Positions 54,518 to 55,270 of a stretch of 64,000 nucleotides of DNA are shown in pieces; within the stretch, counting starts at the first letter, position 1; every line of letters starts with the position of its first letter. The position numbers were made by a program, and so were the translations under genes. Under the pieces are notes generated by a model. The model worked only from the letters and a program-made list of their open reading frames with translations, was not told the DNA's origin and ran no database searches. Where the stretch lies: contig JBLYPX010000001.1 of NCBI GenBank assembly GCA_048538235.1, forward strand, positions 456,013 to 520,012, given 5' to 3'. Origin of the DNA: Candidatus Komeilibacteria bacterium (GTDB taxonomy: Bacteria; Patescibacteriota; Patescibacteriia; UBA1558).

Positions 54518-55270
54518 TTATTTCTTCTTTGGAGCTGCTTTCTTTTTAGCTGTTGGTTTTTTCTTTGCAGCTTTCTTAACAACCTTCTTTGCTTTTTCTT
54601 TAACAACCTTTTTCTTACTCACTTTCTTAGGCTTACTTACAGTTTTTCTATTCTCACGCTTTGGATTGCTAATAGATTTAGTCTTTGAAGTAGTCTTCTT
54701 ATCAGTTAAAGAGATTTTATGCTTAGTAGTTGGAGCAATTACACTTATTAGTTTATCTAACTTTTCAATTATTTCCTTTAATTGCTTACTATTATCTGGT
54801 CCTTTAGAACCGCCTCTTCCACCACGATCTCTACCACCTTGGTCTTTATTACCGAAACATTCACTACAATAGATTGGCTTATCATTTGTTGGTCTAAATG
54901 GAACTTCACAGTTTTTACCACATTCATCACAGACTGCTTTATGCATTTCTCTATCTGAACGTCCAAATCCACTTCTACCACCTCTGTCTCCACCTCTATC
55001 TCTTCCACCTCTGTCTCCAGCAAATCCACCTCTACCACGGTCTCTACCGCCGCCAGAGTCATTTTCGTGACCTCTAAAACAATCACTACAATAGATTGGC
55101 TTATCATTTGTAGGCTTGAAAGGAACTTCACAATTAACCCCACAATCACTACAAACAGCTTTATGCATTTCTGGTCTTTCACGGTCTCTTCCACCGCCTC
55201 TATTACCACCAAATCCACCTCTACCACGGTCTCTACCGCCGCCTCTGTCATTTCCTCTAGAATAACCCAT
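54518..55270 (-). CDS. Putative nucleic-acid-binding protein: RGG/RGD-rich with two tandem CxxC...CxxC zinc-ribbon modules and a lysine-rich C-terminal tail
   Basis: Two ~60-aa units (GGGRDRGRGGF...EMHKAVCSDCGVNCEVPFKPTNDKPIYCSDCF and ...KAVCDECGKNCEVPFRPTNDKPIYCSECF). The tail is KKVSKKKVVKEKAKKVVKKAAKKKPTAKKKAAPKKK. The DNA-level tandem duplication (~85% identity) explains the phantom overlapping ORFs on both strands. Confidence 0.6.
   Translation of the reverse strand: MGYSRGNDRGGGRDRGRGGFGGNRGGGRDRERPEMHKAVCSDCGVNCEVPFKPTNDKPIYCSDCFRGHENDSGGGRDRGRGGFAGDRGGRDRGGDRGGRSGFGRSDREMHKAVCDECGKNCEVPFRPTNDKPIYCSECFGNKDQGGRDRGGRGGSKGPDNSKQLKEIIEKLDKLISVIAPTTKHKISLTDKKTTSKTKSISNPKRENRKTVSKPKKVSKKKVVKEKAKKVVKKAAKKKPTAKKKAAPKKK

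Follow-up and report, generated by a model that had tools for sequence, protein, structure and literature searches.

The gene considered here lies at positions 54518..55270 on the minus strand of a 64,000-nucleotide stretch of a Candidatus Komeilibacteria genome (hereafter the window), where it forms a complete coding sequence of 250 residues followed by a TAA stop (open reading frame [ORF] list and translation). Along its whole length it encodes a CxxC-x17-CxxC domain protein that matches two catalogued models over two stretches each: NCBIfam TIGR04272 "CxxC-x17-CxxC domain" (E = 3e-35, 119.6 bits against a cutoff of 36, covering both modules) and Pfam PF23477 zf_Tbcl_2 "probable treble clef zinc finger" (E = 2e-35, 120.4 bits against a cutoff of 27). 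The Cys pattern C-x2-C-x17-C-x2-C, with its P-F...P...C-x-x-C-F core, occurs twice in the protein, with the first Cys of each copy at residues 40 and 114. An identical protein (100%, P0001) from a Candidatus Komeilibacteria metagenome-assembled genome (MAG), of the Patescibacteria/Parcubacteria group, is already present in GenBank under the CxxC-x17-CxxC name. Judged on its sequence, the gene is an ordinary, already annotated member of the TIGR04272/PF23477 family. An earlier reading of this DNA (the original prediction) had described an Arg-Gly-Gly (RGG)-rich protein with two CxxC...CxxC modules and a basic Lys tail, and the ORF is as described, with the stated sequence present. The same reading could name no fold for the repeated unit; since both modules match TIGR04272/PF23477, the unit is not an unknown one and represents a named domain of unknown function.

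Homologue alignments share a layout of RGG, finger 1, RGG/RDRGG, finger 2, a Gly-rich linker, a helix with a K-L-D core and a Lys/Ala tail, and each of these parts can be placed in the window gene (all coordinates on the minus strand). The N-terminal segment (residues 1-34; 55169..55270), delimited in alignments of 27 and 120 homologues, is of RGG/RDRG low complexity and predicted to be disordered (predicted local distance difference test [pLDDT] <50 at residues 1-29; isoelectric point [pI] 11.5), and the protein start is conserved as MG-x-F/Y, or MG-x-F-N-R in the layout consensus. Zinc-finger module 1 (residues 35-66; 55073..55168; MHKAVCSDCGVNCEVPFKPTNDKPIYCSDCFR) is defined by the Pfam/NCBIfam match and by an AlphaFold2 pLDDT of 84-88; residues C40, C43, C61, C64, P50, F51, P58 and F65 are invariant in the 120-homologue alignment. 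It is followed by an RGG/RDRGG linker predicted to be disordered (residues 67-108; 54947..55072; pLDDT <50 at residues 69-105), which holds 16 Gly and 10 Lys+Arg in 42 residues and differs by a 10-residue indel from the sister lineage L001/L009. Zinc-finger module 2 (residues 109-140; 54851..54946; MHKAVCDECGKNCEVPFRPTNDKPIYCSECFG) corresponds to the best Pfam stretch (residues 107-142), scores 70.5 bits on PF23477 when taken alone and has a pLDDT of 80 in an AlphaFold2 module model.

Downstream of a Gly/Arg-rich linker of low pLDDT, located from the translation (residues 141-158; 54797..54850), AlphaFold2 predicts a conserved amphipathic helix (residues 159-178; 54737..54796; NSKQLKEIIEKLDKLISVIA; pLDDT ~86), which was further defined from the helix segments of 117 homologues. 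This helix, absent from the original prediction, has the family consensus Q-x3-L-N-x-K-L-D-K-I-x3-L, with K170 invariant and D172 and L178 at least 90% conserved among the 120 homologues. The remainder is a Lys/Ala/Pro-rich basic tail (residues 179-250; 54521..54736; pLDDT ~50) in which the alignment conserves composition and not sequence; the C-terminal 70 residues hold 31 Lys+Arg against 3 Asp+Glu (pI 11.1), and the pI of the whole protein is 10.1. A count by eye in the translation gives nine RGG triplets, which fall in three clusters in segments at pLDDT <50. Phantom ORFs overlap the gene on both strands, as had been noted, and the recurrence of one such ORF in 17 related loci reflects its overlap with the real gene.

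AlphaFold2 was run on the 120-sequence alignment, and a second model was made of a single module. The full model contains two confident mini-domains of ~35 residues (31-66 and 106-142; pLDDT 81-91) and the confident helix at residues 159-178, the rest being of low confidence and much of it at pLDDT <50. Within each mini-domain the first CxxC sits in a β-hairpin and the second opens a short helix (in module 1, hairpin 36-39/46-49 and helix from 62), and the module-only model (pLDDT 80) agrees in starting the helix at the second CxxC (C61/C64, C135/C138). In these models the finger fold is probably treble-clef-like and not a classical zinc ribbon, so that the zinc-ribbon label given to it earlier is probably wrong; the Zn_ribbon_8 match (E = 0.095) was also below the cutoff. 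Foldseek searches of the PDB with the full and single-module models returned nothing at E<0.8, the top nonsignificant matches being generic Cys4 sites (LIM, PHD, E7 CR3, FYVE, Fur/PerR), and PDB sequences searched by phmmer and by profile yielded spurious matches only (CRP1 LIM at E = 0.21; PRDM9 C2H2 linkers at E = 0.27). With no significant structural, sequence or profile match in the PDB, this appears to be a family without a solved structure. In the module consensus, P-T-G-D-K-P-V-Y-C-x-x-C recalls the linker T-G-E-K-P-Y-x-C-x-x-C found in eukaryotic C2H2 zinc-finger arrays; this likeness, the source of the nonsignificant top PDB matches to PRDM9 (E about 0.3), is probably coincidental.

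Other zinc-binding families were considered. The CCHC pattern CX2CX4HX4C is absent from the sequence and Pfam zf-CCHC gave no match; ribosomal-protein families were likewise missing from the NCBIfam and Pfam results at E<=1, and the PDB profile search reached eS26 at a nonsignificant E = 1.7. Treble clefs of the FCS/YacG/L24e type were considered on account of the Y-C-S-x-C-F motif and dropped, since they carry C-x3-C at the helix and no hidden Markov model match supports them.

The family is large and its layout uniform. The candidates scored include more than 2,100 proteins with a match at E<=1e-3, and a representative library at 50% identity holds 6,944 relatives. Repeat number, which the original prediction had proposed to check, is indeed variable, the best 150 matches having between 2 and 5 modules; in the best 120 homologues it is two in 114 and three in 6, and the spacer between CxxC pairs is 17 residues in all 246 modules of these 120 proteins. 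The same Cys spacing and a V-P-F-x-P...P-x-x-C-x-x-C-F core characterize TIGR04272/PF23477 as a whole, across which 2 to 5 copies and Arg/Gly/Asp-rich linkers are found, whereas the conserved helix and Lys/Ala tail are additions of a Patescibacteria type and are absent from the 5-module P0121 and the 3-module P0127. A genome scan with an 8-protein alignment as query, taking one genome per species, found a relative in at least 590 species-level genomes, nearly all of them Patescibacteria. Gene carriers also include many MAGs titled "uncultured Gammaproteobacteria" (L010, L015, L017, L019, L047 and others), several of ~1 Mb and one of them a complete 1.0-Mb chromosome (OZ246408.1); the titles probably reflect placeholder or erroneous taxonomy, the organisms being Patescibacteria.

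Two homologues outside the common pattern deserve mention. On the 4.55-Mb Melioribacteraceae chromosome OZ245062.1 (L062, 4971-5531), a full-layout homologue has two fingers, the K-L-D helix, a Lys tail and few RGG triplets, and adjoins a gene for a 784-residue outer-membrane-receptor-like protein; its presence could be due to horizontal transfer, or the family could be distributed more widely. In Gracilibacteria, TGA encodes Gly. The Gracilibacteria homologue at L005 5001-5663 (JAQUEK010000005.1) has several in-frame TGA codons where the RGG repeats call for Gly, and the database protein differs from the standard-table translation; both observations fit the TGA=Gly code and support translation of the low-complexity region.

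The surroundings of the gene offer a circumstantial indication of its role. When some 1,200 ORFs flanking the gene at 87 loci were clustered without prior choice of families, the families present in at least 8 of these loci were an ABC-F ATPase (23), a DEAD-box RNA helicase (11), TypA/BipA (11), a small GIY-YIG protein (10) and YsxC/EngB (8; identified by TIGR03598 at 184.7 bits, above cutoff). Cold-shock-domain genes, sought in a separate motif scan, occur in 16 loci; in 15 of these they share the strand of the gene, and in 11 they are its immediate neighbors. At least one of five RNA/ribosome-linked families lies within 5 kb in 47 of the 87 loci, and about half of the ABC-F, TypA and YsxC neighbors are immediately adjacent to the gene. 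The stand-alone GIY-YIG gene (~83 residues; e.g., L077 5405-5656) stands within a few kilobases, mostly downstream and on the same strand, and may be multi-copy or mobile in these genomes.

Several of these neighbors are present in the window itself. As the original prediction had it, the gene converges with typA/bipA (52664..54454, plus strand), which lies about 63-64 nucleotides downstream; a DEAD-box helicase gene is 2 kb away and an ABC-F gene 1.3 kb upstream. The helicase (50774-52543, minus strand) has a DbpA RNA-binding domain and an Arg/Gly-rich C-terminal tail (…GRGRSGGGRARSKNRKQMSGRNRGRGRSGRGRW), making at least two RNA-related proteins with RG-rich tails in a 5-kb stretch. In the gap between typA and the gene is a terminator-like hairpin of 13 pairs followed by a T-run (54470..54499, minus strand; 1 found against 0.3 expected in shuffles), and about 38 nucleotides upstream of the ATG is a sigma-70-like promoter match, TTGCCA-17-TATACT (55308..55336, minus strand), identified by consensus only (10 of 12 matches) in a region where promoter-like sites are no more numerous than in shuffles. 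An Rfam scan of 54300-55600 returned nothing meaningful, with one sub-threshold match over the terminator.

Further upstream, the ABC-F gene (56603-58054, minus strand) contains a single in-frame TGA at 57689-57691 (…PMD*KIGDLSGGQQ…), a position occupied by Arg in sister L009. Recoding of TGA was considered for this split gene and rejected, as TGA ends 3 of the 35 long ORFs in the window; with TGA a normal stop here, the likely explanations of the interruption are nonsense mutation, pseudogenization or an error in the assembly. Between the ABC-F and zinc-finger genes (55383-56454, minus strand) are overlapping ORFs for a 229-residue HTH_3 + SocA_Panacea antitoxin-like protein and a 130-residue protein without a family match. 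Since the ABC-F gene of L009 lies only 131 nucleotides upstream of its zinc-finger gene, this pair looks like an insertion of toxin-antitoxin type in the window lineage.

The RGG triplets, the two Cys4 fingers, the basic tail and the pI of 10.1, together with the recurrent neighbors, best support a role in RNA binding. The most likely function, for which the case is circumstantial, is that of a general RNA-binding protein or chaperone serving translation or the biogenesis of ribosomes; the earlier suggestion of an RNA/DNA chaperone or ribosome-associated factor is plausible to that extent and fits the gene neighbors. In such a mechanism, each Cys4 module would hold one Zn2+, and its near-invariant V-P-F-[KR]-P...K-P-x-[YFL]-C-x-x-C-F surface, aromatic and basic, would face the nucleic acid. 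The RGG linkers and Lys/Ala tail could then provide strong, sequence-unspecific electrostatic binding, while the helix might serve in self-association or docking, and the protein would work beside cold-shock proteins, the DEAD-box helicase, TypA/BipA, YsxC/EngB and ABC-F as a general binder or chaperone of RNA. Taken as a whole, the explanation that we consider best, an ordinary family member with an old duplication and gene conversion (discussed below) and with the RNA-related function just described, has a probability of roughly one in two. A fuller scenario can be put forward only tentatively: an abundant, Patescibacteria-wide RNA chaperone, its fingers embedded in RGG repeats, would act with cold-shock, DEAD-box, TypA, YsxC and ABC-F proteins in rRNA folding or translation, the helix perhaps mediating self-association and gene conversion keeping the fingers alike.

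Several points weigh against the RNA-chaperone explanation. None of the five RNA/ribosome-linked families is found in 40 of the 87 loci, and neighborhoods vary without a fixed operon. The loci are phylogenetically related, a few of them being the same contig taken twice, and the chance rate of ~5-10% for neighbors is our own estimate, not one drawn from a genome-wide background control. Nucleic-acid binding is inferred for every family member, and the Lys/Ala tail is equally suited to binding DNA. The fold assignment derives from the order of secondary-structure elements in the AlphaFold2 models alone, and no Foldseek match at E<0.8 backs it.

Known RNA-binding proteins provide architectural parallels. 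In FET proteins (FUS/EWS/TAF15), RGG boxes lie on either side of a Cys4 RanBP2-type zinc finger, and the combination binds RNA. The placement of Cys4 fingers within disordered RGG repeats is alike here as an architectural analogy only, whereas the present protein has no zf-RanBP match, no RNA recognition motif or prion-like domain, and a different predicted finger fold. CNBP and the retroviral nucleocapsid are small, basic nucleic-acid chaperones with repeated CCHC knuckles (CX2CX4HX4C) and RG-rich segments; unlike them, the gene considered here encodes Cys4 modules with a 17-residue spacer and a predicted helix.

An alternative hypothesis is that the protein is a nucleoid-associated, histone-like DNA-binding protein whose tail compacts DNA while the zinc fingers add DNA contacts. 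Cys4 fingers can bind DNA, and Lys/Ala-rich tails are found in linker histone H1 and some bacterial nucleoid proteins. The tail of the window protein, with 31 basic residues in 70 and a conserved composition, resembles these in being K/A/P-rich, very basic and disordered, and the high pI of the whole protein points the same way. The resemblance to histone H1 noted in the original prediction holds for composition only: neither the whole protein nor its C-terminal 97 residues gave a Pfam match to a linker-histone domain, with its winged-helix globular fold, or to one of HU type. RGG repeats, moreover, are mostly tied to RNA binding, and the recurrent neighbors are linked to RNA or the ribosome and not to DNA, so we regard a nucleoid role as unlikely.

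A third possibility is a transcription-associated zinc protein, either an accessory to RNA polymerase or a TFIIB-like factor. The only paper found that discusses the domain (PMC12704099) concerns the Methanosarcina mazei small proteins A00184 and A01980, for which zinc bound by the purified protein was detected by inductively coupled plasma mass spectrometry and a role in transcription was speculated upon. The likeness to these proteins lies in the CxxC-x17-CxxC label, which was assigned by those authors on the basis of InterPro; they differ in being small and archaeal, and the passages of PMC12704099 that deal with them do not describe RGG linkers, a helix or a Lys tail. We found no paper naming the Pfam, TIGRFAM or InterPro (IPR026363) accessions of the domain, and none on Patescibacteria zinc-finger proteins with RGG. 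GreA-like genes near 5 of the 87 loci would suit a transcriptional role. However, the suggestion in PMC12704099 is based on shared Cys spacing and one database annotation and not on an experiment, Pfam and NCBIfam gave no match to an RNA polymerase subunit or a TFIIB ribbon, and translation-linked neighbors are far commoner than transcription-linked ones, which makes this explanation distinctly improbable. Even poorer are the prospects of a zinc buffer or store, or a redox-sensing Cys4 protein without a nucleic-acid role: two Cys4 sites, a fifth conserved Cys per module and the structural Zn sites of Fur and PerR among the nonsignificant Foldseek matches are in keeping with it, but it leaves the conserved RGG linkers, helix and basic tail unexplained, no metal-homeostasis gene recurs among the neighbors at the 87 loci, and Thr replaces the fifth Cys in distant family members.

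The gene also contains DNA repeats, which the original prediction had taken for a recent tandem duplication. Two direct repeats are present: a 96-nucleotide finger repeat (54855-54950 versus 55077-55172; 83% identical, offset 222 nucleotides) and a 60-nucleotide RGG repeat (55005-55064 versus 55194-55253; 87% identical, offset 189 nucleotides). The repeats of ~85% DNA identity that had been described are therefore real, although the register given for the finger repeat (54880-54960 against 55060-55140, offset 180) was off; similarly, a quoted 25-mer does occur exactly twice, at 55030 and 55219 and not at 55031 and 55222, and no shuffle of the window gave two matches. Within the repeats are two exact runs, both on the minus strand and both longer than codon resampling predicts. 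The first, of 34 nucleotides, encodes GGGRDRGRGGF (copy A, 55210..55243, GGCGGCGGTAGAGACCGTGGTAGAGGTGGATTTG; p = 3e-4), its copy B (55021..55054) being, from comparison with the sister lineage, the probable recipient of a recent gene-conversion tract. The second, of 29 nucleotides, encodes TNDKPIYCS and is shared by finger 1 (copy A, 55083..55111, ACAAATGATAAGCCAATCTATTGTAGTGA; p = 0.004-0.013) and finger 2 (copy B, 54861..54889).

Comparison across the family dates the modules. The modules are extremely well conserved in every comparison: mean identity is 0.69 between the two modules of one protein, 0.70 between the first modules of different proteins and 0.65 when a first module is compared with the second module of another protein. 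Once the flanks are added, 199 of 228 modules are on average nearest to modules that hold the same position in other proteins. Position signatures are also preserved, R-P-x-M-H preceding module 1 and [DE]-[RK]-x-M preceding module 2. In comparison with the sister lineage L001/L009 (92% nucleotide identity), 3-6 of 96 nucleotides separate orthologous modules and 18-21 separate paralogous ones. As a null for identity, synonymous codons were resampled from the codon usage of the window or of the gene itself: the 77 of 96 nucleotides identical between the finger modules are unexceptional under either (p = 0.16 and 0.49, respectively), and positions with the same amino acid share a codon at 18 of 26 sites against 14.9 expected. 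Amino acid conservation and codon bias account for the overall DNA identity of the modules.

The exact runs tell of later events. As 26 of the 29 nucleotides in the finger run are also common to both modules of sister L001, that run is older than the split between the lineages. The 34-nucleotide RGG run, by comparison, is not found in the sister, whose two RGG copies have 7 mismatches in 39 positions; copy B of the window shows 6 differences in 39 nucleotides from its counterpart in the sister but none in 34 from copy A of the same gene, whose synonymous codons it carries. As read from these sequences, the tract is the product of gene conversion in the window lineage after its split from the 92%-identical sister. 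Such events recur in the family: excess exact runs occur in 18 of 86 homologue module pairs (about 20%) at p<0.01 and in 11 of 86 at p<0.001, reaching 73 nucleotides and falling at various positions. The best reading is of an ancient duplication, older than the spread of the family across Patescibacteria, followed by recurrent short-tract conversion within the gene. What is recent in this gene is patchy conversion, to which the runs of 34 and 29 nucleotides point, and not duplication. A recent, lineage-specific duplication of a ~60-residue RGG+finger unit, for which the 79-87% DNA identity between units and the two exact runs might be cited, is hardly credible given a two-unit layout kept in so many genomes, position signatures shared between species, orthologous modules far closer than paralogous ones, a total identity that codon bias suffices to explain and exact runs that are short patches placed elsewhere along other homologues.

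For analyses of internal repeats more generally, finger-to-finger gene conversion is a reminder that DNA identity within a gene can mimic recent duplication. The window gene itself is ordinary and of low novelty, while the family to which it belongs may merit experiments. Because the genomes of Patescibacteria are tiny, a layout kept in hundreds of their species probably serves a basic cell function, and the neighborhood pattern provides a concrete lead to RNA and ribosome biology, possibly to factors of the cold-shock type. If the RNA chaperone reading is true, these proteins would represent a bacterial architectural counterpart of eukaryotic RGG/zinc-finger RNA-binding proteins.

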